Shown piece by piece: positions 3,864-40,010 of a stretch of DNA of 42,733 bases. Positions within the stretch are counted from its first letter, which is position 1; each line of letters opens with the position of its first letter. The notes below the pieces were generated by a model, which searched no databases, was not told where the DNA came from, and saw only the letters and a program-made list of their open reading frames with translations. The stretch spans positions 1 to 42,733 of the forward strand of contig DATIDU010000104.1 of the NCBI GenBank assembly GCA_035456145.1, written 5' to 3'. This DNA comes from Gaiellales bacterium. GTDB taxonomy: Bacteria; Actinomycetota; Thermoleophilia; Gaiellales; JAICJC01. Made by a program: the position numbers and the translations under genes.

Positions 3864-6036
3864 TCAGACGTCGTCCGGCTGGTCGGACATCGCGGCTTGG
3901 CGGTCGGCACCGGCGAGCCAGGCCTCCAGCTCGGCGGCCGGAAGCGGCCGGCTGATGAAGTAGCCCTGGGCGACGTCGCAGCCGAGCCGCGCGAGCCGCT
4001 CCCACGTGTCGGCGCGCTCGACGCCCTCGGCGACCGTGGTGAGGCCCGGCTTGCGCGCCAGGGCGACGGTGGCCTCGACGATGCTGGTGTCGGTCTGGCT
4101 GCCCGTAAGGCCGTTCACGAACGAGCGGTCGATCTTGAGCTCGTCGACCGGCAGCTGCTGGAGGTAGGACAGCGACGAGTATCCGGTGCCAAAGTCGTCG
4201 AGCGAGATCCGCACGCCCATGTCGTGCAGGCGGGCCAGCACGTCGATGGCCCGGCTCGGGTCGAGGACGAGCATCGTCTCGGTGATTTCGAGCCTCAGGG
4301 AGCCCGCCTCGAGGCCGACTCGGTCGAGCTCGGCCGCCACCGAGCCGGGGAGGTCCGGATCGACAAGGTCGCGCACCGACAAGTTGACAGCCACGCAGAG
4401 CTCGATCCCGCGATCCCGCCACTCGCGGCACTGGGACAGGGCGATCCGCAGCACGCGACGCGTCAGCGGACGGATGAGGCCGGTGTGCTCGGCGAGGTGG
4501 ACGAAGTCGTTCCGGGGCGATTATCCCTCGCTCGGGGTGCTGCCAGCGCACGAGCGCCTCGAGGCTTCGGACGCGGCCGTCCCCCAGGCTGGCCTTCGGC
4601 TGGTAGTGGACAATGATCTCGCCGCGGTCGAGCGCGTGGCGCAACTCGCCGACAAGCGCCAGCCGCTCCGTCGAGTGGTCGTCGGTCGAGGGGTCGTAGA
4701 CCTGCATCGCGGTGCGCGTGTCCTTGGCGACGTACATCGCGATGTCCGCACGCTGCAGGAGAGCGTCAACCTGGTCGCCGTGGTCGGGGTAGACGGCGAT
4801 GCCGATGCTGACCCGGATATCGAGCGGGACGTCGTGAAGCACAAGCGGCACGGCGAGCGCCGTCCGGATTCGCGTAGCAAGGTGGGCCGCGGCGGGTTCC
4901 TCCATGACGCGCGGCATGAGGATCGCGAACTCGTCGCCTCCCAGCCGGGCGAGCGTGTCGCTAGCCCGTAGGACGCCGCGAAGACGCGCGGCCACGGCCG
5001 CGATCACGCGGTCGCCCCGGTGGTGCCCAAGGGTGTCGTTGATCTAGCGGAAGCCGTCGATGTCCATGAGCAGGACGGCCGTCCCGACGCCATCCCGGTT
5101 CGCTGCCGCAATCGCCTGTTCGGTACGGTCGCGAAAGAGCATCCGGTTGGGAAGGCCCGTAAGCTCGTCGTGCGTCAGCCGGTACGCGCTGCGCTCGGGT
5201 TCATGTGGACGTATGCAACCCGGCGCCCGCCGACATCGAAGAGCCCTGCCGACCGGCCGGTTCGCGTCACCTTGCGGACCTCGTGCAGATCGGGACCCGC
5301 GAGCGGCGTCGCAACGTCGCGCCCCTGTGCGTTCGTGAACAGAACCACGCCGGTACGGGCATCGACCACCGACATCTCGGCCCCCCGTGCCCGGAGCAAC
5401 GCCTCGCGCCGGAGCGAGTCGACGGGAACTTGAAGCTGGAGGATCACACGACCCCGAGACCGGTCGCCGCGGCCGTTGAGCTCGGGACGACCCACTCGCC
5501 CGTGTCTTCGGCGACATATGGGGCCGACTGATAGACCGTGCCCGGCGGCAGCGTCGTCGACGCCCAGAAGAACCGCTTCAGGGTCTCGTCCTCCGCCGGC
5601 CGCCTGCGTGACGCCCACCCGAGCGGCCGCGCCGTCGCCAACGCGTGCCCAGCGCCGTCGATCGCCTCGGCGGCTCCGGCCAGCCGGCGTCCGTAACCTG
5701 TCCGGAGAGCGACCAGCGCCTCGTCGGCGCGCCGCTGCACGCCGGGATCGGCTCCGGCCGGGCCGGACCGAGCCGCCAGGACACGGCGCCACACCGGGCT
5801 CACGGCCGTCGCCTGGAGGAGCGCCCGAGCGACTGGGTGAGGGCGGCGACCTCGCTGGACGCCGCTGTCTGGAGACGGGCGTCCTGCGTGGCCTGGGACT
5901 GGATCGCCGCTTCACGGACAAGGAGCACCGCCCCGAGCCCGAGCGGAACGAGGCCGGCCGCCATGACCAAGAACGCCCAGCGCGCGTGGTCGCGTAGGAG
6001 CACGCGCAGCGCGTGCCGGTCGAACGGTACGGCCAT
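3864..6036 (-). pseudogene. Decayed TM-sensor(Cache-like, tentative)-GGDEF-EAL c-di-GMP signalling gene
   Basis: Homology is spread over several minus-strand frames. ORF 5800..6036 carries the N-terminal TM helix. ORF 5444..5803 plus the C-terminus of 5175..6704 carry the sensor (SAPYVAEDTGEWVV / ILQLQVPVDSL). ORF 5044..5517 has LTGLPNR and DIDGFR, then an in-frame TAG at 5044-5046. ORF 3571..5007 has INDTLGH, RASD I-site, RLGGDEF and YQPK..EALVRW. ORF 3864..4454 has EITE, DDFGTGYSS, EGVE and QGY. Frame breaks lie near 5805-5835, 5445-5449, 5196-5199 and 4511-4517. Confidence 0.75.
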
Positions 6037-12112: not shown

Positions 12113-14335
12113 ATGGGATTGCGCTTCGGGCGGCGACACTTCGCCATGCGCGCCCGCGTCCGCCGCGGGCTGTCCGGCGTTGCCCGTCGTAGCCGGCTCG
12201 CCTGGACCGGCGAGGAGCAGCTGCGGCTCGCGCTGGCCGCGGCCCGGATGGGGACGTTCGAATGGGACCTGCGCAGCCACCGGGGTACGATGTCGCCGGA
12301 GCTGGAGGCGATCCACGGCCTCGCGCCGGGCGAGTTCGACGGCAGCGCGGAGATGCTCATGGAGCTCGTGCACCCCGACGACCGCGACGTCCTGCTCTCG
12401 AGCTTTGCCGAGGCGGCCGCAGGCGGCGGAACCTACGAATCGGTGTTCCGGATCGTCCTGCCGAGCGGCGAGGTGCGGTGGCGGACAGCCGTCGCGACCA
12501 TCCTGACCGGCGCCGACGGCATGCCGTCGCGCATCGTCGGGGTCGGGCAGGACGTGACCGACCGGCGCAGGGCGGAGGAGACCCTCGCCGAGGCGCAGGC
12601 CCGGTACCGGCGGATGGTCGAGCAGCTGCCGCTCGTGACGTACGTCGAGAGCCTCGACGCCGAGAGCGCGCTCTACATCAGCCCGCAGATCGAGGAGCTC
12701 TGCGGTTACACCGCGGAGGAGTGGATGGCCGACCCCCAGTTCTTCGGCAAGGTGCTCCACCCCGACGACCGCGACCATGTGCTGGGCGAGTTCGCCAACA
12801 CCCACATGACGGGCGACATGTACGACGGCGAGTACCGGGTGGTCGCCAGGGACGGCCGGATCGTCTGGGTGCACGACGTCGCGGTCAGGGTGCGCGACGA
12901 CGACGGCAACCCGCTCTACTCGCAGGGCTACATGGTCGACGTGACCGCACGCCACGCGGCAGAGCAGGCGCTCGCCGAGAGCCGGGCGCAGCTCGAGCAG
13001 CGGATGCGCGAGATCGAGCATCAGGCCCTGCACGACGCGCTCACCGACCTGCCGAACCGCACGCTCTTCCACGACCGTGTCGAGCAGGCGCTTCGCACCG
13101 CGCGCCGCACGGGCGGCGGTGTGTGCGTCATGCTGATCGACCTCGACCGGTTCAAGGAGGTGAACGACACGCTCGGCCACGCGAGCGGCGACGTCCTCCT
13201 CCAGGAGGTGGCCCGCCGGCTGCGGGCGCCGGTGCGCGAGTGCGACACGGTCGCACGCCTCGGCGGCGATGAGTTCGGCGTGCTGGCGGCCGGCATCGCG
13301 ACGCCGGCCGACGCGATCGTCCTCGCCGAGAAGCTGCGCGAGGCGCTGACGGAGCCGATCGCCGTCGCCGGCCTGGCGCTTGAGGTCGAGTCGAGCATCG
13401 GGATCGCGCTCGCGCCGGATCACGGACTCGACGTCGAAACGCTCATCCGCCACGCCGACGTCGCGATGTACGTCAGCAAGGCCACGCACAACCCCGCCCT
13501 GTACTCGCCCGAGACCGACCACCATTCGCGTGTGCGCCTCACGCTGGTGGCCGACCTGCGCCGCGCGCTGGAGCGCGAGGAGCTCGTCGTCTACTACCAG
13601 CCGCAGGCCTGCGCGACGACCGGCGCCGTCCGCACCATGGAGGCGCTGGTGCGCTGGGAGCATCCCGTCCACGGCCTGCTCACGCCTGACCAGTTCGTGC
13701 CGGTGGCCGAGCAGACCGGGCTCATCCGGCCGCTCACCCTGTACATGCTGGACGCCGCCCTGCGCCAGTGCACGGAGTGGCGACGCTCCGGCTACGACGT
13801 CGCCGTCGCCGTGAACGTCACCGGGCGCGATCTCCTGGACCTGCGCTTCCCCGAGCAGGTCGCGGCGGCGATCGCGCGCGCCGGAGTCGCAGCGGAGGCG
13901 CTCGAGCTCGAGATCACCGAGAGCACGATCATGGCCGACGCCGCCCGCGCCCGCTCGGTACTCGTGCAGCTCTCCGAGCTTGGGGTGCGCCTCGCGATCG
14001 ACGACTTCGGCAGCGGCCACTCGTCGCTCGGCTATCTGAAGCGGCTGCCGATCGACGTCTTGAAGATCGACCGCTCCTTCGTCATGAACATGGCCGACGG
14101 GAGCGACGACGTGGTGATCGTCCGCTCGACGATCGACCTCGGCCACAACCTCGGCCTCCAGGTGGTCGCCGAGGGCGTCGAGACCCAGGAGGCGCTGGCG
14201 CAGCTCATGGAATTCGGCTGCGACTCGGTGCAGGGCTACTTCCTGAGCCGGCCCCAGCCGACCGATGCCGTCGAGTGGATCGTCCGCCGCCTGGCACGCC
14301 GCCTCCCGCCCGGCGACGTCTCGGCCACCGGCTGA
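12113..14335 (+). CDS. PAS-PAS-GGDEF-EAL bifunctional c-di-GMP signalling protein
   Basis: ORF 12053..14335. It has two PAS-like units (MGTFEWDL.., VHPDDRD; LYISPQIEELCGYTAEEW, LHPDDRD). The GGDEF domain has LTDLPNR, DLDRFKEVNDTLGH, an RECD I-site and RLGGDEF. The EAL domain has YQPQ..EALVRW, EITE, DDFGSGHSS, EGVE and QGY. The start is uncertain (TTG 12053, ATG 12113 or ATG 12146). Confidence 0.9.
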   Translation: MGLRFGRRHFAMRARVRRGLSGVARRSRLAWTGEEQLRLALAAARMGTFEWDLRSHRGTMSPELEAIHGLAPGEFDGSAEMLMELVHPDDRDVLLSSFAEAAAGGGTYESVFRIVLPSGEVRWRTAVATILTGADGMPSRIVGVGQDVTDRRRAEETLAEAQARYRRMVEQLPLVTYVESLDAESALYISPQIEELCGYTAEEWMADPQFFGKVLHPDDRDHVLGEFANTHMTGDMYDGEYRVVARDGRIVWVHDVAVRVRDDDGNPLYSQGYMVDVTARHAAEQALAESRAQLEQRMREIEHQALHDALTDLPNRTLFHDRVEQALRTARRTGGGVCVMLIDLDRFKEVNDTLGHASGDVLLQEVARRLRAPVRECDTVARLGGDEFGVLAAGIATPADAIVLAEKLREALTEPIAVAGLALEVESSIGIALAPDHGLDVETLIRHADVAMYVSKATHNPALYSPETDHHSRVRLTLVADLRRALEREELVVYYQPQACATTGAVRTMEALVRWEHPVHGLLTPDQFVPVAEQTGLIRPLTLYMLDAALRQCTEWRRSGYDVAVAVNVTGRDLLDLRFPEQVAAAIARAGVAAEALELEITESTIMADAARARSVLVQLSELGVRLAIDDFGSGHSSLGYLKRLPIDVLKIDRSFVMNMADGSDDVVIVRSTIDLGHNLGLQVVAEGVETQEALAQLMEFGCDSVQGYFLSRPQPTDAVEWIVRRLARRLPPGDVSATG

Positions 14336-14697: not shown

Positions 14698-14728
14698 GGG
14701 GTCAGGCCCCCGTACGGGGCCTGACCCC
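14698..14728. terminator. Bidirectional hairpin between convergent genes (13-bp perfect stem)
   Basis: GGGGTCAGGCCCC (14698-14710), loop CGTAC, then GGGGCCTGACCCC (14716-14728). It sits between the stop at 14686 (+) and the stop at 14743 (-). There is no clear U-tract. Confidence 0.7.
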
Positions 14729-21038: not shown

Positions 21039-21698
21039 ATGCAAGAACCTAACCCAGCAACTCCCACACCCGCGAGCGGCCTGCTTTCAGACCGGGCCTA
21101 CGCGGTCCTGCGCGACCGGCTGATCTCGCTTCAGATCCCGTCGGGATCTCCGATCGACGAGGACGCGCTGACGCGCAACCTGGGAGTCGGGCGGACGCCG
21201 GTGCGCGAGGCGGTGCGGCGGCTCGCGCTCGAGGGGCTGGTCGTCGTCTACCCGCGGCGCGGCACGTTCGCGGCGAGCATCGACATCACGAGCCTCTCCG
21301 ACATCACCGACGTGCGCTGCCAGCTCGAGCCGCACGCCGCCGCGCGAGCCGCCGAGCTCGCCGACGCGGACGACCGGCGCGAGGCGGCCGCGCTCATGGC
21401 CGAGCTCGAGCACGCGGCGTCGAGCCAGCGGTCGCTGATCGAGCTCGACGCCCGCGTCCACCGGTTCGTGCACCGCTGCTCGCGCAACCCCTACCTGGCC
21501 CGCGACCTCGACCGCTACCTCAACATGTCGCTTCGGATCTGGCATCTCACCTTCGACCGCCTGCCCCCGCTCGACGACCCGGTCCGCGAGCACCGCGTGT
21601 TGCTCGAGGCGATCAGCCGGGGCGACCCGGAAGCGGCGCGGTCGATCGCGCTCGAGCACGTCCTCGGCTTCGCCCGCGAGATGCGCGCGGCGCTTTAA
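21039..21698 (+). CDS. GntR-family transcriptional regulator, FadR subfamily (FCD C-terminal domain)
   Basis: 219-aa ORF with a winged HTH (LTRNLGVGRTPVREAVRRLALEGLV) followed by an all-helical FCD-like domain. It is divergent from the dehydrogenase-ETF operon and ends in a TAA stop. Confidence 0.9.
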   Translation: MQEPNPATPTPASGLLSDRAYAVLRDRLISLQIPSGSPIDEDALTRNLGVGRTPVREAVRRLALEGLVVVYPRRGTFAASIDITSLSDITDVRCQLEPHAAARAAELADADDRREAAALMAELEHAASSQRSLIELDARVHRFVHRCSRNPYLARDLDRYLNMSLRIWHLTFDRLPPLDDPVREHRVLLEAISRGDPEAARSIALEHVLGFAREMRAAL

Positions 21699-21796
21699 AC
21701 ACGGGGGAACCCAGGGTTCCCCCGTGAGCCCCCTCCTTAAGGGGCTGGCGCGGCGTTGGGAGCGCGACGGCGAAGAACGCGGTCTTCGCCGTCGCC
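21696..21796 (+). repeat. Two-hairpin intergenic repeat element, copy A (second copy at 38810..38908)
   Basis: TAAACACGGGGGAACCCAGGGTTCCCCCGTGAGCCCCCTCCTTAA..GACGGCGAAGAACGCGGTCTTCGCCGTCGCC. Hairpin 1 is at 21700-21726 (13-bp perfect arms). The C-rich core GAGCCCCCTCCTTAA is at 21726-21740. Hairpin 2 is at 21766-21793 (11-13 bp stem). Confidence 0.75.
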
Positions 21797-21824
21797 ACGA
21801 GCGCGTGGTGCCTGTAACCCCGTG

Positions 21825-21852
21825 GGGTCTGGCCCCGGACGGCGCCAGACCC
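21825..21852. terminator. Hairpin 12 nt beyond the stop of the beta-propeller gene
   Basis: GGGTCTGGC (21825-21833) pairs with GCCAGACCC (21844-21852) around a 10-nt loop. There is no U-tract. Confidence 0.4.
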
Positions 21853-21863
21853 GGTGGTACGGC

Positions 21864-23054
21864 CTACTCGGTGAACGCTGCGTAGCCCTGCTGGGCGACG
21901 CCGCCGATCTTGGTGAAGTCGCCACCGGCCGCGATCCTCGTACCGGAGCCGGCCAGGGCGAAGATCCCAAGCGCGCTGTTGGCGTGCGGGTTCCATGACG
22001 TGAGCGCGCCCGTGCCCTCGGCGACCGCGAGCAGCTTGAGCCGCTGAACCGGGTTGGTGCACGTGTGCTGCCCACCCTGCGGCCCGCAGTAGTTCGTGTA
22101 GTGGCCGCCGACGTAGACCTCGCCGTCGAGGACCGCGATGGCCTGCACGTTACCGTCGGTGCCGCCCTGCCAGACGGCCGCTCCGGTCGACGGGTTCAGG
22201 TTGGCGAAGTTGCCGCCGCCGCCGGCACCCGCGACGAAGACGCCGGTTGAGTCGACGGCGAGGTCGACGACGCCGTACGGCAGGTGGTGGGTGAAGGTCG
22301 GCGACGGCGCGCCGGTCGCCGTCGACAGCGCGGCGATGTGGCTCTGGCTCCCGCCGTTGATCGTGGTGAAACCGCCGCCGACGTAGACGAGCCCGCCGCC
22401 CGGCGCCAGGCGCACCGTGGTGACGGTCGGCGTCGTCGAGGAGTTGCCACCCGCCGCCGGCGCCCACGTCGTCGACAGCGCGCCGGTGGATGCGTCGAAG
22501 GCCGCGAGCGATGCGCGAGCGACCCCGTTGGCCGTCGTGAAGGCTCCGCCCGCGTAGACCACGCCGCCGCCGACCGCCAGCGAGTTGACCGCGGCGTCGA
22601 GCTTCGGCTTGAACCCCGAGAGGACGGCGCCGGTTGTGGCGTCGACGGCACCGATCCGCGACCGGGTCGACGTGCCGAGCTTCGAGAACGACCCGCCGAC
22701 GTAGATCGTGTTGCCGGACCCCGCGAGGGCGAACACCGCTGCGCTTGTACCGGGGTTCCACGGGAGGAGCGCTCCGGTCGCCGGGTCGAACGCCGCCAGG
22801 TGGTTGCGCGCGACCTCGCCGGTCCCGGCGGGCGCCCCCGCCGGCCGGACCGACGTGAACTTGCCGCCGAGGTAGACGGTGCCGTTCAGGAAGAGGATCG
22901 CATTCACGCGCCCGTTCGTCTGATACGACGACACGGGCTTCGCCCCGACCACCGCCGCCTGCGCGGGCAGCGCGGACGCGCCTCCCAGGACTCCGAGCGC
23001 CACAGCCGCGCACCCGGCGCGCCGCAGCCGAACGACCGCTCCCCTCATGACCAT
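21864..23054 (-). CDS. Secreted beta-propeller repeat protein
   Basis: 396-aa ORF with an N-terminal signal peptide (..ALGVLGGASALPAQA|AVV). It has about 7 internal repeats of the pattern VYxGGxFTxxxGxxRxxLAAxDxxTGAL..W. ATG 23054 or 23048. Confidence 0.8.
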   Translation of the reverse strand: MVMRGAVVRLRRAGCAAVALGVLGGASALPAQAAVVGAKPVSSYQTNGRVNAILFLNGTVYLGGKFTSVRPAGAPAGTGEVARNHLAAFDPATGALLPWNPGTSAAVFALAGSGNTIYVGGSFSKLGTSTRSRIGAVDATTGAVLSGFKPKLDAAVNSLAVGGGVVYAGGAFTTANGVARASLAAFDASTGALSTTWAPAAGGNSSTTPTVTTVRLAPGGGLVYVGGGFTTINGGSQSHIAALSTATGAPSPTFTHHLPYGVVDLAVDSTGVFVAGAGGGGNFANLNPSTGAAVWQGGTDGNVQAIAVLDGEVYVGGHYTNYCGPQGGQHTCTNPVQRLKLLAVAEGTGALTSWNPHANSALGIFALAGSGTRIAAGGDFTKIGGVAQQGYAAFTE

Positions 23055-23553: not shown

Positions 23554-24558
23554 ATGCCGGCATCCCCCAGAACGGCGAGGCAAATCGCCCCGCAGACTCC
23601 CCCGGTTAGGGGATGCGAGGAGCACCGAGGCAGGGATAGGTTGCAGGCGATGGGCGTCTCCCGGTTGGGGCAACGGACCGACGACATCGTGTGGGACGAG
23701 GGGCACGAGAACGACTTCTTCCGACGCATGCCGTCCGCGCTTTCGCTGGTGCTCGAGGCCACCGACCTCGAGTCGCTGGCCCATGCCACTGCGAAGGGTG
23801 CCGAGGTGCTGTGGGAGTGCGCCGCCGAGGTCGTTCTGCCGTCGGAGGGCGAGCTTCGGCGGAAGATCCAGGCGACGTCGCTGAACGGCAGGCGGAGGCC
23901 CGAGGGGTTCCGCCACGACCGGCGGGCCGCCGCACTGCGGATGCCGCTCATCGCCCACGACGCCCGCCTCGGCGAGCTCGTGCTGCGGCGGGAACGGCCC
24001 CTCGGCCGCCAGGAACACGGCCACGTCCAGTACTACGCCGAACTGTGCGCGCTCGCGGTGCACTCCTGCTTCATGCGCGAGCAGTTCCACCGCGCCGCCG
24101 TGACGGACTCGCTCACCGGCATCGCCAACCGCCACCGCCTGATGGAGGAGCTCGACCATCGGGCCGGTGCGCCGTACCGGCTCCTGATGCTCGACGCGGA
24201 CGGCTTGAAGCAGGTGAACGACTCGCTCGGGTACGAGGACGGCGATCTCCTGATCGTCGCTCTGGCCGATGCGCTCACCTCGGTCCTCGAGGCCGGCGAG
24301 GTGGCGGCCCGGCTCGGCGGCGACGAACTCGTGGCCGTCCTGAACCCCCTGTCGCCGGCCGACGCCTCGGCCCGCGTCCACCGGCTGCGCGTCCTCGTCG
24401 ACGACCTGCCGCTGCCGCGCCGCATCCGCGACATCTGCCAGGGGGCGAGCGTCGGCTGCGTCGCGTCGCGGCCCGGCGAGACGCCGCGTGAGACGCTGCG
24501 GCGGGCGGGCGCCGAGATGCAGCGGCACAAGCGGCGGCGGAAGTCCGACCGGCGGTGA
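23554..24558 (+). CDS. GAF-like sensor + GGDEF-domain protein with degenerate GGDEL motif
   Basis: 334-aa ORF with LTGIANR, DADGLKQVNDSLGY and RLGGDELVAV (F to L). There is no RxxD I-site 5 residues upstream. The start is uncertain (23554 or ATG 23650). Confidence 0.8.
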   Translation: MPASPRTARQIAPQTPPVRGCEEHRGRDRLQAMGVSRLGQRTDDIVWDEGHENDFFRRMPSALSLVLEATDLESLAHATAKGAEVLWECAAEVVLPSEGELRRKIQATSLNGRRRPEGFRHDRRAAALRMPLIAHDARLGELVLRRERPLGRQEHGHVQYYAELCALAVHSCFMREQFHRAAVTDSLTGIANRHRLMEELDHRAGAPYRLLMLDADGLKQVNDSLGYEDGDLLIVALADALTSVLEAGEVAARLGGDELVAVLNPLSPADASARVHRLRVLVDDLPLPRRIRDICQGASVGCVASRPGETPRETLRRAGAEMQRHKRRRKSDRR

Positions 24559-26897: not shown

Positions 26898-28184
26898 GTG
26901 GAGGTGATGGTGGACATCCTTGGCGGATCACCGGGCAGGGCCGCCGAGCTCGACTCGGCGATAGATGCACCGATCGCTGCGGCGCGCGCCCGCATGCCCG
27001 AGCGCCTCTCGCACCGCGACCGGGTCGTGAGCGGGCTCCTCTCGACGGCGTTCCTCGCGGTCGCCGTCCCGCTCGCCGTCGCCGCGCCCGACGGCGGCCG
27101 CCACCCGGGCATCGCCCTGGTCGCCGCGTTCACGGTGGCGTACGCCGTGTGCTCGTGCATCGAGTTCGAGGTGTCGAGCGGGACGGGCGTGCCGACGATG
27201 CTCGTGCTCGTCCCCATGCTCTTCGTGCTTCCGCCCGGCTGGGTGCCGCTGGTCGTCGCCGCGGGACTCCTCGGCGGCGGTGCCTGGGAATGGCGTCGCG
27301 GCGACCTGCACCCCGAGCGCGGGCTCGTGCTGACCTCGGGCGCCTGGCACGCCGTCGGCCCAGCCCTCGTCCTGTCGTTCGCGGGGGCGCCGCCGCCGCG
27401 GCTCTCCGACTGGCCCATCTACGCGGCCGCGCTCGCAGCACAGTTCGGCTTCGACTTCGCGAGCGCCGCGCTCCGCGAGCGGATCGCCTTCGGCGTCCCC
27501 GTCAGCGTGATGGCGCCGGCGATCGCACGCGTGTGGGTCATCGACCTGCTCCTCGCACCGCCCGCGTTCCTCGCGGCGCTCGCGACGGCCGGCGAGCCGT
27601 ACGCATGGCTGCTCGTGCTTCCGGCGGCCGCGCTCCTCGCCGACATGGCCCGCGACCGGCGCGCCCGCATCACCGAGGCGCTGCGGCTGGCGCACGCGTA
27701 TCGCACGGTCGACCACAAGGCCCATCGCGACCCCCTGACCGGCGTCGGGAACCGGCTGGCCTGGGACGAGGCCGTGGCGCTCGCCGACGCCCAAAGCGCC
27801 GGGCCGGTCAGCGTGATCATCGCCGACCTCGACGGCTTGAAGCGCGCGAACGATGAGCGCGGCCACGACGTGGGTGACGCGCTGATCTGTGCGGCCGCCG
27901 AGACGATCCGCCACCAGGTGCGGGAGTCCGACCTGGTCGCCCGGCTGGGCGGCGACGAGTTCGGCGTGCTGCTCTCCGGCGCGTCACCGGCACGGTGCCG
28001 GCTCACAGCCGAGCGGATCGCGAGCGCGGTCTCGGAGCACCCTCCCGTCCGGGGCATCCGGCTCTCGGTCTCACTCGGCTGGGCCGCCACTCCCGACGTC
28101 CCGTCGGTCTCGGAGGCCAAGCGGGTGGCCGACAAGCAGATGTACGCACAGAAGCAGTCTCACCTCGCTGCCCGGCCGGCATAG
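26898..28184 (+). CDS. Membrane-anchored diguanylate cyclase (multi-TM N-terminal domain + GGDEF)
   Basis: 428-aa ORF with an N-terminal ~6 TM region, then LTGVGNR, DLDGLKRANDERGH, an RESD I-site and RLGGDEF. The start is GTG 26898 or ATG 26907. Confidence 0.85.
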   Translation: MEVMVDILGGSPGRAAELDSAIDAPIAAARARMPERLSHRDRVVSGLLSTAFLAVAVPLAVAAPDGGRHPGIALVAAFTVAYAVCSCIEFEVSSGTGVPTMLVLVPMLFVLPPGWVPLVVAAGLLGGGAWEWRRGDLHPERGLVLTSGAWHAVGPALVLSFAGAPPPRLSDWPIYAAALAAQFGFDFASAALRERIAFGVPVSVMAPAIARVWVIDLLLAPPAFLAALATAGEPYAWLLVLPAAALLADMARDRRARITEALRLAHAYRTVDHKAHRDPLTGVGNRLAWDEAVALADAQSAGPVSVIIADLDGLKRANDERGHDVGDALICAAAETIRHQVRESDLVARLGGDEFGVLLSGASPARCRLTAERIASAVSEHPPVRGIRLSVSLGWAATPDVPSVSEAKRVADKQMYAQKQSHLAARPA

Positions 28185-31330: not shown

Positions 31331-32931
31331 GCCGCCCACCTGCCGTTGGCCTCCACTCGCCGCGCGGCCAGCCGCTCGGCGAGCCGGGCCGCGAGGGCCA
31401 TGATCGTGAGTGCAGGGTTGGCGCTCCCCTGCGTGGGCATCACGCTCCCGTCGCAGACGAACAGGTTGCGAACGCCCCACACCCGGTGGTCCGCGTCGAC
31501 GACGCTCGTCTCGGGGTCTGTCCCCATCCGGCACCCGCCGACGAGGTGCGCGTACCGGTCGATCGTGAGAATGTCCTGGGCGCCGGCCGCCTCCCAGATG
31601 CGGTTGATCATGCGCTTGGCGTATGCGACGTTCGCGCGGTCGTTCTCGCACTGGGTGTAGCTGAACCGGGCGACCGGCATGCCGAACTGATCCGTCTCGC
31701 CGGCGAGCGTCACCCGGTTCTCGGCCCGCGGGAGGAGCTCGCACAGGGCGCCGAGCACGGCCCAGTGGTTGTAGTCGCGCATGTATTCGCGCAGGGCCGT
31801 GCCGTGGTGCCCGTCGGCGAGCACGTGCTCGGCCCAGCCGATCGGGAGCGGGCTCACGGTCTGGATCGAGAAGCCGCGGGCGAAGCAGCGCTCGGGATCC
31901 GTCTCGTAGAACTGCTCGGAGGAGACCTCCGGCGGCGGCGCCTTGTACATCCGCAGGAGCTCGGGGAAGCGGCCCGCGATCTGCGGAGCGCCCTGCACCA
32001 TCACGTAGCGGCCCACCTGGTCGTGCTCGTTCCCGACCCCGGAGTGCAGCAGGAGCCGGGGCGTCTCGATCGCGTAGCCGCACACCGCCACGGCGCGGGC
32101 ACGCTGCACGCGCTCGGTGCCGTCGCGGACGTAGCGGACGCCGGAGGCCGAGCCGCCGCCGTCCATCTCGATCCCGACGACCATCGCGTCGGCCCGGACC
32201 TCCGCCCCCTGGTCGAGGGCGTCGGGCACATGCGTGACGAGCGGGCTGGCCTTGGCGTTCACCTTGCAGCCCTGAAGGCAGAAGCCGCGGTAGATGCAGT
32301 GCGGCCGGTTCCCGAAGCGGCCGTTCGTGATCGCCACCGGGCCGACGCGCATCTCGATGCCGCAGGCCCGCGCGCCCTCCCAGGCCCGCTCGGCGGCGCC
32401 GCAGACCGGGTGCGGGCGGTGCGGATAGCCGTGCGGGTCGCCCCATGGCCACCGCTGCCCCGCGACGGGTAGCTCACGTTCCAGCACGCGGTAGTGGTCG
32501 CGCAGCTCGGCGTAGGTGATCGGCCAGTCGGCGCCGACACCGTCGACCGTGCGGGTGGCGAAGTCCGACGGGTGAAACCGAGGGGTGTAGCCGGCGAAGT
32601 GCACCATCGAGCCGCCGACGCCGAGACCGCTGTTGTTCTTGCCCATCTCGACGGGGTCCTCGCCCGCGATGATGCGGGTGTCGTTCCAGTAGAGGTGCGA
32701 CGAGCCGGCCTCGTCGGATACCCAGTCGCGGTCGGGATCCCAGAACGGCCCCCGCTCGAGGACGACGATCCTCCACCCGGCCCGTGCCAGCCGCTGGGCG
32801 AGCACGCCGCCACCCGCGCCGCAGCCGACGATCGCCATGTCAACCGCATCGTCGTCGCGAAAGCGGCGCATCCGATCGAGGCCGGGAACGCCGCGCCGGT
32901 GCGGGTGAAGCAGGAGGTGGGAGCGATTCAT
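31327..32931 (-). CDS. GMC-family FAD-dependent oxidoreductase
   Basis: The N-terminus has DMAIVGCGAGGGVLAQRLARAGWRIVVLERGP. The C-terminus has HLVGGCRMG..VCDGSVMPTQGSANPALTIMALA. The ATG at 32931 overlaps the upstream stop (ATGA); an alternative ATG is at 32871. Confidence 0.9.
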   Translation of the reverse strand: MNRSHLLLHPHRRGVPGLDRMRRFRDDDAVDMAIVGCGAGGGVLAQRLARAGWRIVVLERGPFWDPDRDWVSDEAGSSHLYWNDTRIIAGEDPVEMGKNNSGLGVGGSMVHFAGYTPRFHPSDFATRTVDGVGADWPITYAELRDHYRVLERELPVAGQRWPWGDPHGYPHRPHPVCGAAERAWEGARACGIEMRVGPVAITNGRFGNRPHCIYRGFCLQGCKVNAKASPLVTHVPDALDQGAEVRADAMVVGIEMDGGGSASGVRYVRDGTERVQRARAVAVCGYAIETPRLLLHSGVGNEHDQVGRYVMVQGAPQIAGRFPELLRMYKAPPPEVSSEQFYETDPERCFARGFSIQTVSPLPIGWAEHVLADGHHGTALREYMRDYNHWAVLGALCELLPRAENRVTLAGETDQFGMPVARFSYTQCENDRANVAYAKRMINRIWEAAGAQDILTIDRYAHLVGGCRMGTDPETSVVDADHRVWGVRNLFVCDGSVMPTQGSANPALTIMALAARLAERLAARRVEANGRWAA

Positions 32932-38440: not shown

Positions 38441-38572
38441 AACCGGGGCGACTCCGCTGGGAGAAACGTCCCCCGGTCCGGCGCCGGCGCCTACCGGCCC
38501 AACGCCCGTCGCAGGCTTCGTCGGGGGCCGGGTCCGGGGGCAACCGTATCCGCGAAGAGAGGGCATCTGGGC

Positions 38573-38812
38573 ATGGCGCAGGGCGCAGGGATCGACGCGA
38601 CGAGCAGCCTGACCGACGTCCAGGAGGCGTTCCGGGGCCAGGGCATGGAGCTCGTCGTCCGCCTGCGCGGAACGAGGTGGCAGGCGCTCGTGCGCGCCAT
38701 CCCCGGCAACGGCAGGCTGCACGCCGACGCGTGGGCCGCCTCACCCGACGAGGCCGCCCGGCGCGCGTGGCGGCGCCACATCGAGGAGCACGGCGGGACC
38801 GGGGCGAGCTAA
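38573..38812 (+). CDS. Hypothetical small protein (79 aa)
   Basis: The ORF has strongly GC-biased third positions and ends in a TAA stop that is the first triplet of repeat copy B. I recognise no family. Confidence 0.55.
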   Translation: MAQGAGIDATSSLTDVQEAFRGQGMELVVRLRGTRWQALVRAIPGNGRLHADAWAASPDEAARRAWRRHIEEHGGTGAS

Positions 38813-38908
38813 ACGCGGGGGAACCCAGGGTTCCCCGCGAGCCCCCTCCTTAACGGCCGGCGTCGCGTTTGCCGCACGACGGCGAAGAACGCGGTCTTCG
38901 CCGTCGCC
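38810..38908 (+). repeat. Two-hairpin intergenic repeat element, copy B
   Basis: TAAACGCGGGGGAACCCAGGGTTCCCCGCGAGCCCCCTCCTTAA..GACGGCGAAGAACGCGGTCTTCGCCGTCGCC. The first ~46 nt and last ~30 nt are near-identical to copy A, and the middle ~25 nt diverge. The stem change A:T (copy A) to G:C (copy B) is compensatory. Confidence 0.75.
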
Positions 38909-39038
38909 TCCCCCGTCAGTCGCTTGCTCCCGGACGTCCCGATTCGGTCCGGCGGCCGGCGATCGGGGTCACACCCCGCACCAGACGCGTCACACCCGTG
39001 TCACAGCCGCGATGCGGGTCTGACCCCAGGGTTCGACG

Positions 39039-40010
39039 TCAGGCGCGTTCGGTCGTGGCCGGCTGGAGGAAGACGTGCCGGATGGCCGGATCCCGGCTCC
39101 GCAGGTCGTCGATGATCCGGTCGGTGAGCTCCTCGATCTCGGGGACCGAGAGCTCGTCGCGAAACTCCACCCGGCCGGCGACGAGGACGTCGTCGGGGCC
39201 CACGTGCATCGTCCGTAGCTCCGGGACGGAGACGACCTCGGGGCGGCCCTCGATCTCGCGCTCGAGAAACTCGCGCGTCTCGGCCCGGGCCGATTCCCCG
39301 AGGAGGAGCCCCTTGGCGTGCGTGCCGACGCCGACCGCCGCTACCGCCAGGATGACGCCCACCCCGATCGAGGCGAGCGCGTCGAACGTCTCGCTCCCGG
39401 TAAGCACGCTCGCCCCGAGCCCGGCGGCAGCGACGAGCACGCCCGCGACAGCCGCAGTGTCCTCGAGCAGCACGACCCGGGGGACCGGGTCGCGCACCTC
39501 GCCGACGAAGCGCGTGAACGACACCCTTGAGCGCACGGCCCCCTGCCGCAGCTGGCGCGCGGCCCGGATCAGCGAGATGCCCTCGGCGACGAACGCCACG
39601 CTCAGAACCACGAACGACACGAGGGGATCCCCGATGGAGTGCCCGTCGCGCAGCGCCAGGACGCCCTGACCGATCGAGAAGACCGCGCCGGCGAAGAAGA
39701 TCCAGACGGCGGCAACGAACGCCCAGAAGAAGCGCTCCTTGCCGTGGCCGAACTGATGCTCCTCGTCGGCCGGCCGGCGGCCGAGGTGAAGCGAGGCGAG
39801 CAGGACGAGCTGGTCGACCGTGTCGGCGGTCGAGTGGGCAGCCTCGGCCAGCATCGCCGCCGAGCCGCTGGCGAGTCCGGCCAGGAGCTTGGCGAGCGCG
39901 ATCAGTGCGTTGGCCGCCAGCGCGACGAGGATCGTGAGCCGGCTCTCCCCCTCCTGCTCCCCACGCTCGGCGCCACCGGCGGGAGTCCGGCGCTTCGTCG
40001 CCTCGGCCAT
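39039..40010 (-). CDS. Cation diffusion facilitator (CDF) family metal efflux transporter
   Basis: 323-aa ORF with TM region motifs (SAAMLAEAAHSTADTVDQ, FGHGKERFFWAF) and a C-terminal cytoplasmic domain. It starts 5 nt after the MFS stop. Confidence 0.9.
   Translation of the reverse strand: MAEATKRRTPAGGAERGEQEGESRLTILVALAANALIALAKLLAGLASGSAAMLAEAAHSTADTVDQLVLLASLHLGRRPADEEHQFGHGKERFFWAFVAAVWIFFAGAVFSIGQGVLALRDGHSIGDPLVSFVVLSVAFVAEGISLIRAARQLRQGAVRSRVSFTRFVGEVRDPVPRVVLLEDTAAVAGVLVAAAGLGASVLTGSETFDALASIGVGVILAVAAVGVGTHAKGLLLGESARAETREFLEREIEGRPEVVSVPELRTMHVGPDDVLVAGRVEFRDELSVPEIEELTDRIIDDLRSRDPAIRHVFLQPATTERA

Follow-up and report, generated by a model that had tools for sequence, protein, structure and literature searches.

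Two copies of a composite element in the window

The window is the whole stretch of DNA that was analysed, 42,733 nt from a Gaiellales bacterium with a G+C content of 72.3%, and it contains two copies of a composite element, called copy A and copy B, both on the + strand and at the positions where an earlier note on this sequence had placed them. As that note observed, each copy begins at a TAA stop codon; copy A adjoins a GntR/FCD regulator gene, and copy B adjoins an ORF of 79 aa, which is a real gene, conserved in a related locus (L225) with mostly conservative changes. Both copies sit between convergent genes, with no ORF for their reverse strand to serve. The element had been described as about 100 nt long, and a semi-conserved tail 3′ of hairpin 2 extends it to about 120 nt (Table 1).

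Table 1. Features of the two element copies, in positions of the window.
Feature	Positions	Strand	Remarks
Copy A, full-length element	21696-21822	+	~120-nt composite family member
TAA stop of the GntR/FCD regulator gene (21039-21698)	21696-21698	+	Pfam
Copy A hairpin 1, CACGGGGGAACCC-A-GGGTTCCCCCGTG	21700-21726	+	27-nt perfect palindrome
Copy A C-rich tract, AGCCCCCTCCTTAA	21727-21740	+	contains CCTCCTT, the anti-Shine-Dalgarno (anti-SD) heptamer
Copy A spacer	21741-21763	+	poorly conserved
Copy A hairpin 2, 13-bp stem GCGACGGCGAAGA / TCTTCGCCGTCGC, loop ACGCGG	21764-21795	+	outer three pairs covary
Copy A tail, family consensus GCCACGACCGTYGGGTGCRTGTG	21796-21822	+	3′ limit of the covariance-model match
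Copy B, full-length element	38810-38934	+	~120-nt composite family member
TAA stop of the conserved 79-aa ORF (38573-38812)	38810-38812	+	
Copy B hairpin 1, CGCGGGGGAACCC-A-GGGTT-CCCCGCG	38814-38839	+	bulged 3′ arm
Copy B C-rich tract, AGCCCCCTCCTTAA	38840-38853	+	
Copy B spacer	38854-38876	+	
Copy B hairpin 2, 12-bp stem, loop as in copy A	38877-38906	+	
Copy B tail	38907-38934	+	leaves the family consensus immediately 3′ of GCC

In copy A, one A (21699) separates the stop codon from hairpin 1, which is laid out as CAC-GGGGGAACCC-A-GGGTTCCCCC-GTG, with a core that is identical in more than 116 loci and outer pairs that covary. The corresponding layout in copy B is CGC-GGGGGAACCC-A-GGGTTCCCC-GCG, where the 3′ arm is short of one C, creating the bulge. 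The A:T to G:C double change between the outer stems of the two copies is genuine and preserves pairing. A 32-nt block (CGACGGCGAAGAACGCGGTCTTCGCCGTCGCC) is identical in both copies, and the alignment of the two copies shows a diverged spacer between the hairpins, as previously described. Read on the reverse strand, the C-rich tract of copy A is AAGGAGGGGGCT; on the + strand, it is predicted to lie in the loop of a small hairpin specific to class A, the group of elements to which the window copies belong.

A chance likeness between the copies is excluded. The cores of hairpin 1 and hairpin 2 each match the window at the two copies only, with 0.00 matches expected from 100 shuffles, and a covariance model built from relatives scores the copies at 134 and 117 bits and finds no other match in the window. 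The predicted fold of copy A is well below that of its shuffles (z = -5.9), while copy B folds no better than shuffles (z = -1.45); copy B, whose hairpin 1 is bulged and whose tail diverges, may be in decay already.

The stop codons at which the copies begin are unusual for this DNA, as had been pointed out: of the ORFs called in the window, 3 of 41 end in TAA, as do 50 of 466 in related loci. The suggestion that the element itself supplied the stop codon is contradicted for copy A, where element-free GntR orthologues stop at the same residue, with TAA or TAG. At the copy B site, the sole element-free orthologue (L225) also stops at the same residue, with TGA.

A family of palindromic elements in Gaiellales

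The two copies are members of a family of composite palindromic elements that had not been described before and that is found in Gaiellales (class Thermoleophilia). The proposal of a dispersed, REP/MITE-like repeat family is borne out by many additional copies in relatives. The order of parts is a 27-nt palindrome (hairpin 1), the C-rich tract GAGCCCCCTCCTTAA, a loose spacer, a 13-bp hairpin 2 and a semi-conserved tail; the tract between the hairpins is conserved and includes the anti-SD heptamer. Module 1, which combines hairpin 1 with the tract GNGCCCCCTCCTT, is common to the whole order, whereas module 2 is lineage-specific and consists, in the window's class A, of hairpin 2 and the tail.

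The 20-nt core of hairpin 1 is unchanged in more than 116 listed loci, a lower bound, from about 90 species-level genomes that are nearly all Gaiellales. Its centre contains CCWGG, the inner 10-bp half-site is invariant across the order, and the outer stem triplet is usually CGC/GCG. A complete scan for the window-type hairpin 2 found 94 loci, mostly in about 11 related MAGs, each of which has at most about 19 exact class A copies, and about 90 of 100 distinct hairpin-2 matches have module 1 upstream at a fixed distance. Independently chosen loci totalling 160 kb contain no additional copy. Sequence on the 5′ side varies, with C-R-Y of the outer stem as the sole fixed part; the T/A-richness at positions -7 to -4 reflects stop codons. 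The element lacks terminal inverted repeats and a conserved 3′ terminus, and its two ends are unrelated.

Comparison of the whole window with Rfam gave no match at gathering thresholds, and a permissive search of the element gave chance-level likenesses only (E at least 0.3), among them a weak one to CcsR1 (E = 1.7). Plasmid, phage and viral-contig collections contain no match to the element, and a literature search on repeats in Gaiella or Thermoleophilia found no paper on such elements. A conserved small ORF inside the element was rejected by eye, as its candidate start (CGNNGCG) is not conserved. Integron attC sites were also rejected, since the copies do not form cassette arrays but are scattered downstream of housekeeping genes, as were the target or template repeats of diversity-generating retroelements (DGRs), with no reverse transcriptase present and differences that are not adenine-specific (L151).

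Position relative to stop codons, tRNA genes and start codons

Elements typically lie 0-5 nt past stop codons or 7-8 nt past tRNA genes, in sense orientation. In particular, the stop codon starts 5-12 nt 5′ of the GGGG core in 48 of 65 scorable copies, of which a few may be false, since the GC3-based ORF caller mis-assigned a sense-strand stop to one copy (L019) that is in fact antisense and 3′ of a TPP riboswitch. Four copies lie 7-8 nt 3′ of tRNA genes, in the same orientation. Where a downstream neighbour is called, it is convergent in about 70% of class A copies.

The association with TAA is statistically real. The stops adjoining 42 class A copies are TAA in 20, TAG in 17 and TGA in 5 cases, compared with 50 TAA, 186 TAG and 230 TGA among 466 background stops of related loci, making TAA about 4-fold enriched near elements. 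Recoding hairpins of the SECIS/PYLIS type were rejected, the stops being mainly TAA and TAG with no enrichment of TAG.

About 10% of copies are antisense and immediately 5′ of a start codon, so a pure 3′-end role does not cover every copy. For example, antisense copies precede a GTPase gene in three species, and others precede genes behind TPP riboswitches. Copies behind tRNA genes and antisense copies in 5′ UTRs do not figure in the earlier note, nor do the anti-SD-like tract, the order-wide conservation of hairpin 1 or the long flanking duplications.

Insertion at orthologous sites and flanking duplications

The element is inserted DNA: some orthologous sites contain it and others lack it. 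At the GntR site, it is found in the window and in one other locus (L144) only, and the sites of close relatives are empty; at the site of copy B, between the CDF gene and the small ORF, it is found in the window only. Direct repeats of local sequence whose ends lie 0-8 nt from hairpin 1 flank 22 of 173 copies (about 13%), compared with 1 of 519 controls. These flanking duplications range in length from 21 nt to over 100 nt; the junction at hairpin 1 is precise, whereas the position of the far end varies. At one locus (L008), an empty allele from a soil metagenome is exactly 71 nt shorter, which equals a 50-nt element plus a 21-nt duplication. Further, two loci (L084 and L223) show tandem amplification of the element. 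Around both window copies, no flanking duplications rise above background.

The copying process is of an unusual copy-and-paste kind, with footprints that match no standard bacterial transposition scheme. A tblastn search of 1.66 Mb around about 260 copies, using IS200 TnpA and E. coli RAYT queries that were approximate, found no RAYT/IS200-type gene near elements; the best match to these approximate transposase queries (E = 0.048) lies in an element-free locus.

Constraint and covariation

Once inserted, copies are vertically inherited, and 25 ortholog groups hold the element at the same site in different species. Across 48 orthologous pairs, identity is 0.94 in hairpin 1, 0.92 in the C-tract and 0.90 in hairpin 2, compared with 0.69 in the spacer, 0.68 in the tail and 0.59 beyond the element; the first, second and third codon positions of the upstream genes have identities of 0.93, 0.95 and 0.76. 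Both hairpins and the unpaired C-tract are therefore conserved like nonsynonymous codon positions, while the spacer decays.

The compensatory change seen between the window copies extends family-wide to both hairpins. In the family alignment, 96.4% of stem cells are paired, and 88 stem cells are changed on both sides, compared with 31.6 +/- 3.5 in shuffles (0 of 500 reach 88); the covariation collapses in slid controls. Variant stem states are inherited within ortholog groups and not homogenised. The stem mismatches have no sense-strand G-U bias (10 G-U versus 19 A-C in class A, 14 versus 13 family-wide), so the pairing constraint could act on DNA or on either strand.

A proposed RNA 3′-end function and its alternatives

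The explanation that we consider best is that the family consists of gene-end elements of a REP- or TRIT-like kind, mobile in origin and exapted as factor-dependent RNA 3′-end modules; as a whole, it has a somewhat better than even chance of being right. Taken alone, its account of the family, of the insertions and of the constraint is very probably correct, and the 3′-end function alone is tentative, with a chance slightly short of even. According to this explanation, the element would be transcribed as the 3′ trailer of the upstream gene, where hairpin 1 would form a very stable stem right after the stop codon, defining and protecting the RNA 3′ end by blocking 3′-5′ exonucleases, and possibly also acting as a pause or processing site. 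A clade-specific protein would read the invariant stem together with the adjoining C-tract, which would distinguish the element from a factor-independent terminator; a similar mode of action is assumed for REP elements and for the TRIT motif of mycobacteria. The preference for TAA could arise because the insertion target is A/T-rich, or because the strongest stop is selected for beside a stable hairpin.

It counts against this explanation, and leaves the earlier suggestion of a terminator cassette unsupported, that no U-tract comes after either of the hairpins, whichever strand is read (the sequence next to hairpin 1 is GAGCCCCC on the + strand and GUUUA on the - strand), and there is no terminator-like site around either copy. 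Actinobacterial (mycobacterial) RNA polymerase does not terminate in vitro at hairpins that lack a U-tract (PMC3993855). Consensus promoters are also absent around either copy. Module 1 occurs with many different flanks in contigs of four soil RNA-type runs, which may include DNA and are blind to 3′ ends; querying with just the element yielded no RNA run of use.

An alternative is purely selfish DNA, a palindrome and its flank that proliferate at the DNA level with no host function. Copying would be carried out either by a HUH/RAYT-like enzyme acting on the single-stranded hairpin or by palindrome-induced template switching or break repair, which would copy an ectopic element and re-copy 20-100 nt of the target, and the conservation of the hairpins would reflect the needs of mobility together with hairpin-templated correction. 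Compensatory changes in DNA palindromes can arise without selection, through hairpin-templated (quasi-palindrome) template switching. The filled and empty orthologous sites, the long variable duplications with their single precise junction and the empty allele, the tandem amplifications and the stem mismatches without strand bias all agree with such an origin, as does the preference for convergent intergenic regions, the least constrained places of a genome. What counts against it is the C-tract, which is unpaired and beyond hairpin-templated repair, yet is 92% identical between orthologues, compared with 69% for the spacer and 76% for third codon positions; immobile selfish relics should decay. 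Moreover, variant stem states are inherited without homogenisation, copy numbers are low, in the tens per genome, and the transposase search came back empty, a weak negative given its approximate queries. A purely selfish element is somewhat unlikely.

A more novel possibility, which we regard as unlikely, is a new bacterial mobile module, a transposase-less ‘gene-end cassette’ that the host has adopted through a Gaiellales-specific protein. Here, the perfect palindrome would bring about its own copying, by template switching, by break-repair capture or, possibly, via an RNA intermediate whose defined end lies at hairpin 1. The outcome would be a single precise junction, together with duplications of 20 to more than 100 nt of the target, and these duplications would rescue the interrupted gene, tRNA or riboswitch. 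The adopting protein would read the invariant stem and the anti-SD-like tract, so that one orientation would serve as an RNA 3′-end signal and the other as a ready-made leader composed of an SD, a hairpin and a start.

The remaining readings place the function elsewhere. It is improbable that the opposite strand is the functional one, as a portable translation-initiation cassette with an SD (AAGGAGGGGG), hairpin 1 and an outer-stem ATG or GTG, the copies behind stops, including both window copies, being by-products. The SD on the reverse strand is perfect, and real genes start in frame at a hairpin-foot ATG or GTG in about 10 of 120 copies, among them the GTPase (VAVVGFPNVGKS) in L011, L016 and L085 and other genes in L020, L081 and L106; a TPP riboswitch aptamer is separated from its gene by the antisense element in L019, L026 and L115. 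However, most copies face a gene or tRNA from its 3′ side, which would make their reverse strand antisense to that gene, the usual outer triplet CGC/GCG provides no start codon, and the window copies have no ORF to serve. Slightly less probable still is a 3′-UTR-derived sRNA or ‘sponge’ whose exposed CCUCCUU would pair with SD sequences in trans or in cis, tuning translation. The conserved tract holds this 16S rRNA anti-SD heptamer between two stable hairpins, and in copy A within a predicted loop, but the loop presentation is not conserved beyond class A, the Rfam searches gave no relative, the CcsR1 match being weak, and a dedicated regulator would not be expected to occur in tens of dispersed copies that follow unrelated housekeeping genes and tRNAs. 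The least probable reading treats hairpin 1 as a double-stranded DNA site for a dimeric protein, with a role in nucleoid organisation, replication or segregation, DNA uptake or restriction and methylation (considering its CCWGG centre), the position at gene ends being incidental. The perfect 27-bp palindrome, its order-wide invariant half-site and the unbiased mismatches would suit such a site, but the outer three base pairs are free to vary yet stay complementary, a pattern of an intrastrand hairpin and not of a duplex binding site. The asymmetric element is also tied in orientation to the adjacent gene or tRNA, and uptake or nucleoid sites would be expected at a higher density than the approximately one per 100 kb, or less, seen here.

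Canonical terminators are scarce in high-G+C actinobacteria. An invariant hairpin after stop codons and tRNA genes, throughout a nearly uncultured soil order, offers a testable candidate for a factor-dependent 3′-end signal, paralleling the TRIT motif of mycobacteria, and its insertion footprints hint at a possible route by which palindromes could spread with no dedicated transposase. The covariance model and the 20-mer GGGGGAACCCAGGGTTCCCC have practical uses, as they can mark gene ends in MAG annotation, flag Gaiellales DNA and account for assembly breaks at these repeats.

Comparison with known elements

The REP and BIME elements of Proteobacteria are similarly short, dispersed, extragenic palindromes enriched between convergent genes, and hairpin 1 (27 nt, intergenic) falls within their description as imperfect extragenic palindromes of 20-40 nt. 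REP elements stabilise upstream mRNA and attenuate transcription, and those near a stop codon can affect translation of the upstream gene. Unlike REPs, the Gaiellales element has no conserved 5′ GTAG/GTGG head, occurs as single copies and not as inverted pairs (REPIN/BIME), has a hairpin 2 unrelated to hairpin 1, and, within the limits of the approximate queries, has no RAYT (TnpA_REP) near its approximately 260 copies. Its copies number in the tens (the richest genome has about 19 exact ones of class A) and not in the hundreds, its core has been kept throughout an order, REPs being as a rule confined to one species, and it has long flanking duplications, which REPs do not.

The MITE-type repeats (Correia/CREE of Neisseria, ERIC, RUP and BOX) are also dispersed, non-coding sequences of about 100-150 nt with internal hairpins and presence/absence polymorphism, and they can affect neighbouring genes, but the Gaiellales element has neither inverted repeats at its termini nor a short target duplication of constant length, such as TA. 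Intrinsic terminators, and the hairpin clusters proposed as terminators (PMC8355165), likewise place one or two G+C-rich hairpins right after stop codons or tRNA genes; the Gaiellales element differs in having no U-tract and in its conserved sequence, which ordinary terminators do not share between unrelated genes. A further likeness is to PATE, a transposase-less derivative of IS200/IS605, which has two different subterminal hairpins about 100 nt apart and inserts in one orientation just downstream of a short motif containing A/T, a place often taken by TAA or TAG in the Gaiellales element. In contrast to PATE, anything from 0 to 5 nt separates the stop from the hairpin, no fixed motif or cleavage tetranucleotide is present, and neither TnpA nor TnpB was detected; IS200/IS605 insertions make no target duplication, whereas 13% of the Gaiellales elements have long ones.

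The closest parallel in kind is TRIT, the ‘tuberculosis Rho-independent terminator’ of Mycobacterium, with 147 copies in M. tuberculosis of a sequence-conserved palindromic hairpin at stop codons, for which its authors propose a binding factor (Gardner et al. 2011, PMC3152330). Both are sequence-conserved palindromic hairpins of high-G+C actinobacteria, with tens to about 150 copies per genome, a narrow position at stop codons, restriction to one clade and no canonical U-tract; the likeness is of kind only, between different host orders, and no sequence relationship is claimed. Unlike TRIT, the Gaiellales element is composite, with a C-rich anti-SD-like tract, a second hairpin and a tail, and it also occurs behind tRNA genes and antisense in 5′ UTRs, and shows insertion polymorphism and long flanking duplications. 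The two also differ in where they start, TRIT inside the coding sequence (at about -8) and the Gaiellales element 0-5 nt after the stop.

Two copies at gene ends in the window

The window contains two copies of the element on the + strand, each in a convergent intergenic region and each starting at a TAA stop codon (see table), and the positions, strand and stop codons that an earlier note had given for two look-alike stretches of about 100 nt are correct. Window matches to the hairpin 1 and hairpin 2 cores fall in these two places only, where shuffles expect 0.00, and a covariance model built from an alignment of 83 elements recovers the known two copies alone, with 134 and 117 bits. The A:T to G:C double change claimed for the outer stem of hairpin 1 is likewise present (CAC/GTG in copy A, CGC/GCG in copy B). 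The 3′ arm of hairpin 1 in copy B has lost one C, and in consequence the fold of copy B is no better than that of shuffles (z = -1.45), while that of copy A is far better (z = -5.9). TAA is, as had been remarked, rare among the stops of this 72.3% G+C window.

Of 65 scorable copies across the family, 48 have the stop codon of a co-directional ORF starting 5-12 nt ahead of the GGGG core, so that the stop either overlaps the stem or precedes it by 0-5 nt. Positions -10 to -6 of the 5′ flank are rich in T and positions -5 and -4 in A, with TAA frequency peaking directly against the stem. In particular, the stops beside 42 copies of class A (elements with the window's hairpin 2 type and tail) are 20 TAA, 17 TAG and 5 TGA, compared with 50, 186 and 230 in a background of 466 ORFs; the class A counts include orthologous, hence non-independent, sites, and the shift is large nonetheless. 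Four copies begin 7-8 nt beyond the 3′ end of a co-oriented tRNA gene, so what the position marks is the end of a gene and not translation itself. The downstream neighbour is convergent in about 70% of cases where one could be called.

The suggestion that the element supplied the stop codon fails for copy A. Among thirty orthologous GntR loci, only the window and L144 (L numbers denote related loci in other genomes or assemblies) have the element at this site, and L144 has a second, inverted copy that serves the convergent gene; close relatives without the element end after the same last residue with TAA (L120, L121, L123) or TAG (L117-L119, L122), and distant relatives end with TGA. The 79-aa ORF upstream of copy B is a real gene, as it is conserved in L225, where it stops after the same residue, with TGA as its stop codon and no element behind it; L224 and L226 lack both ORF and element. 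Copy B is thus a lineage-specific insertion, and its presence goes along with TAA in place of TGA, a stop codon that the element may have supplied here. The enrichment for TAA is genuine; an A/T-rich target could account for it, as could selection for a strong stop beside the hairpin.

Soil-metagenome contigs matching 21698-21864 show related populations with other forms of the GntR intergenic region: in one, 38 nt (CGCGGGGAACCCCGGGGCGGGCACACGCTCCCGGCGGC) with the look of a collapsed hairpin 1 replace 21699-21815, and in another, 96 other letters replace 21699-21863. This site turns over rapidly. Separately, L224, L225 and L226 share with the window a conserved, near-identical non-coding stretch (GACGTCCCCCGGTCCGGCGCCGGCGCCTACCGGCCCAACGCCCGTCGCAGGCTTCGTCGGGGGCCGGGTCCGGGGGCA, about 85 nt), with or without the 79-aa ORF after it; Rfam offers no match even at E = 1, and the stretch could be a leader, a promoter region or an uncharacterised RNA.

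Features of the window and of related loci
Feature	Sequence	Coordinates	Strand	Basis
Copy A start, TAA stop of GntR/FCD regulator gene	window	21696-21698	+	Pfam
Copy B start, TAA stop of 79-aa ORF	window	38810-38812	+
Secreted repeat protein gene, convergent to copy A	window	21864-23054	-
Cation-diffusion-facilitator gene, convergent to copy B	window	39039-40010	-
GGGGTCWGRCCCC palindrome sites	window	14698-14728; 21824-21836; 31513-31525; 38965-38977; 39015-39027
GACGTCCCCCGGTCCGGCGCCGGCGCCTACCGGCCCAACGCCCGTCGCAGGCTTCGTCGGGGGCCGGGTCCGGGGGCA block	window	38455-38545
GGDEF motif region, three stretches	window	13128-13294; 24182-24251; 27814-27980
Antisense element at TPP riboswitch	L019	469-680		Rfam RF00059
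Antisense element at TPP riboswitch	L026	907-1130		Rfam RF00059
Antisense element at TPP riboswitch	L115	10-230		Rfam RF00059
Element with flanking target duplications	L008	1057-1148
Array, two units of 184 nt	L084	about 4690-5060
Array, three units of ~166 nt	L223	4300-4800

A widespread, low-copy family retained in place

Further copies, for which the earlier note had proposed a search, are many. The 20-nt core of hairpin 1 (GGGGGAACCCAGGGTTCCCC) has exact matches in at least 116 stretches from about 90 assemblies when one genome per prokaryotic species is scanned, and the labels among the matches listed are, apart from a few stray ones, Gaiellales, Gaiellaceae, Thermoleophilia or uncultured Actinomycetes. 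Hairpin 1, whose loop base on the C-tract strand is A in 100 of 102 oriented copies, is followed 3′ by three further parts: the conserved tract G(A/G)GCCCCCTCCTT, a spacer that varies, and a second hairpin of at least two classes. The window's hairpin 2 type occurs in 94 stretches (complete scan), mostly from about 11 related MAGs, in which the closest GntR orthologues are also located; module 1 (hairpin 1 and C-tract) lies about 65 nt upstream in some 90 of 100 distinct hairpin 2 matches, and the class A consensus from the 83-element alignment, semi-conserved tail included, is about 120 nt long. With about 19 copies in the richest MAG, and with the GntR-site copies of L144 as the covariance model's sole matches across 160 kb of related loci chosen independently, the family is widespread yet low-copy, at tens per genome.

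The element is kept at 25 groups of orthologous sites, each spanning two to seven species; one lies behind a gene ending WILLYTVVYL, by eye probably cytochrome oxidase subunit III. Over 48 orthologous pairs, identity is 94% in hairpin 1, 92% in the C-tract and 90% in hairpin 2, but 69% in the spacer, 68% in the tail and 59% in the next 60 nt beyond; the upstream coding DNA is 88.5% identical, with 93%, 95% and 76% at codon positions 1, 2 and 3. The three modules have thus changed in place as little as nonsynonymous sites, and the intervening DNA has diverged further than synonymous sites. Stem variants, CAC/GTG for example, are passed down within ortholog groups, and some orthologues differ by compensatory changes in the stem. 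Together, these patterns argue for a host-level function over decaying selfish relics.

Standard pairs fill 96.4% of stem cells in the 83-sequence alignment, and the covariation that the earlier note had proposed testing in relatives is present: 88 cells are changed on both sides, compared with 31.6 ± 3.5 in shuffles (0 of 500 reach 88), and the signal is gone when partner columns are slid. The two-sided changes fall at five pairs, the two outermost varying ones of hairpin 1 and three outer ones of hairpin 2, while the inner 10 bp of hairpin 1 are nearly invariant, also in copies ascertained via hairpin 2. Hairpin-templated template switching in a DNA palindrome can also yield such compensatory changes, so covariation alone is no proof of RNA structure; the unpaired C-tract is beyond repair by any hairpin-templated process. 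Stem mismatches give no strand hint (10 G-U and 19 A-C in class A, 14 and 13 family-wide).

Candidate functions and known systems

No canonical terminator is present around either copy, and hairpins without a U-tract show no in vitro termination by mycobacterial RNA polymerase (PMC3993855). The nearest known thing is TRIT of Mycobacterium, a palindromic hairpin of conserved sequence that has 147 copies, is confined to one genus and is placed very narrowly at stop codons, for which its discoverers proposed a stem-binding factor (PMC3152330); REP elements are the other close parallel. On these grounds, a factor-read RNA 3′-end module is the favoured reading of hairpin 1. Forming the 3′ trailer on mRNAs and on the precursors of tRNAs, hairpin 1 would set and protect the RNA 3′ end directly behind the stop codon, and a clade-specific protein would read it together with the C-tract.

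One function may not cover all copies. The C-tract includes the anti-SD heptamer CCUCCUU, and the opposite strand therefore bears a perfect SD. About 10% of copies are antisense, directly before a start codon that is sometimes formed by the outer stem. In L011, L016, L085, L020, L081 and L106 the order is AAGGAGGGGG, hairpin, ATG or GTG from the outer stem, and a real ORF in frame; at L011, L016 and L085 the arrangement is conserved at a GTPase gene start in three species. Moreover, L019, L026 and L115 have the antisense element between a TPP riboswitch aptamer (64-67 bits) and its regulated gene. With sense copies behind genes, the module is used in both orientations.

The earlier label of 'REP/MITE-like' is broadly right for a dispersed repeat family, but the element fails the defining tests of REP/RAYT and MITE, as it does those of PATE and of an intrinsic terminator. 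The terminator and 3′-UTR sRNA readings of the earlier note remain hypothetical. Rfam and the searched literature hold no record of the family, and it is filed as a variant of conserved palindromic gene-end repeats not previously described in either.

Insertion footprint

Of 173 module-1 copies, 22 lie between direct repeats of neighbouring sequence, with lengths from 21 to more than 100 nt; among shuffled pairings the count is 1 of 519. On the upstream side the gap from repeat to hairpin 1 is always 0-8 nt (mode 3), and on the downstream side the repeat begins at a variable distance. The repeats contain gene starts (L008, L015, L066), 3′ ends of convergent genes (L151 and the orthologous sites L010, L192 and L223 in three species) or parts of tRNA genes (L074, L092), and the duplications restore the interrupted gene start, gene end or tRNA in all of these. 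At L026 and L115 they contain the 3′ part of the TPP riboswitch, duplicating the last 25-28 nt of the aptamer, and the repeat pairs are identical within each genome and different between genomes. An empty allele of L008 in soil-metagenome contigs is exactly 71 nt shorter, matching the 50-nt element plus one 21-nt repeat, which identifies the flanking repeats as insertion-associated target duplications.

Other sites are more complex. The L151 repeat copies are identical over 77 nt, but in the final 30 nt of the gene they differ by about 40%, largely at synonymous positions, which a single simple duplication does not explain; L084 and L223 are tandem arrays of element and adjacent flank, and the final 14 codons of a convergent gene for an 801-aa coiled-coil protein recur in every L223 unit. 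No Y1/HUH transposase was found with approximate query sequences in 1.66 Mb around about 260 copies, plasmid, phage and viral collections lack the element, and the length and variability of the duplications fit no standard transposase. That the hairpin 1 junction alone is exact could be due to template switching at the palindrome, or else to staggered breaks whose repair captured a copy of the element. The footprint is unexplained by standard schemes and potentially novel.

Neighbouring repeats

A second, shorter palindromic family, GGGGTCWGRCCCC, has six window sites (12 strand-matches) where 0.6 are expected, and related loci carry it often. Each element copy has one such site between itself and its convergent gene, so that hairpin repeats are stacked in both intergenic regions. 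The relatives L038, L119, L155, L172 and L186 share a related motif, GGGGACAGTCCCTGAAC...GCGTCACAC. The direct-repeat families D2 and D18 are three paralogous stretches encoding the GGDEF (diguanylate cyclase) motif region; they belong to ordinary paralogous genes, unrelated to the element.
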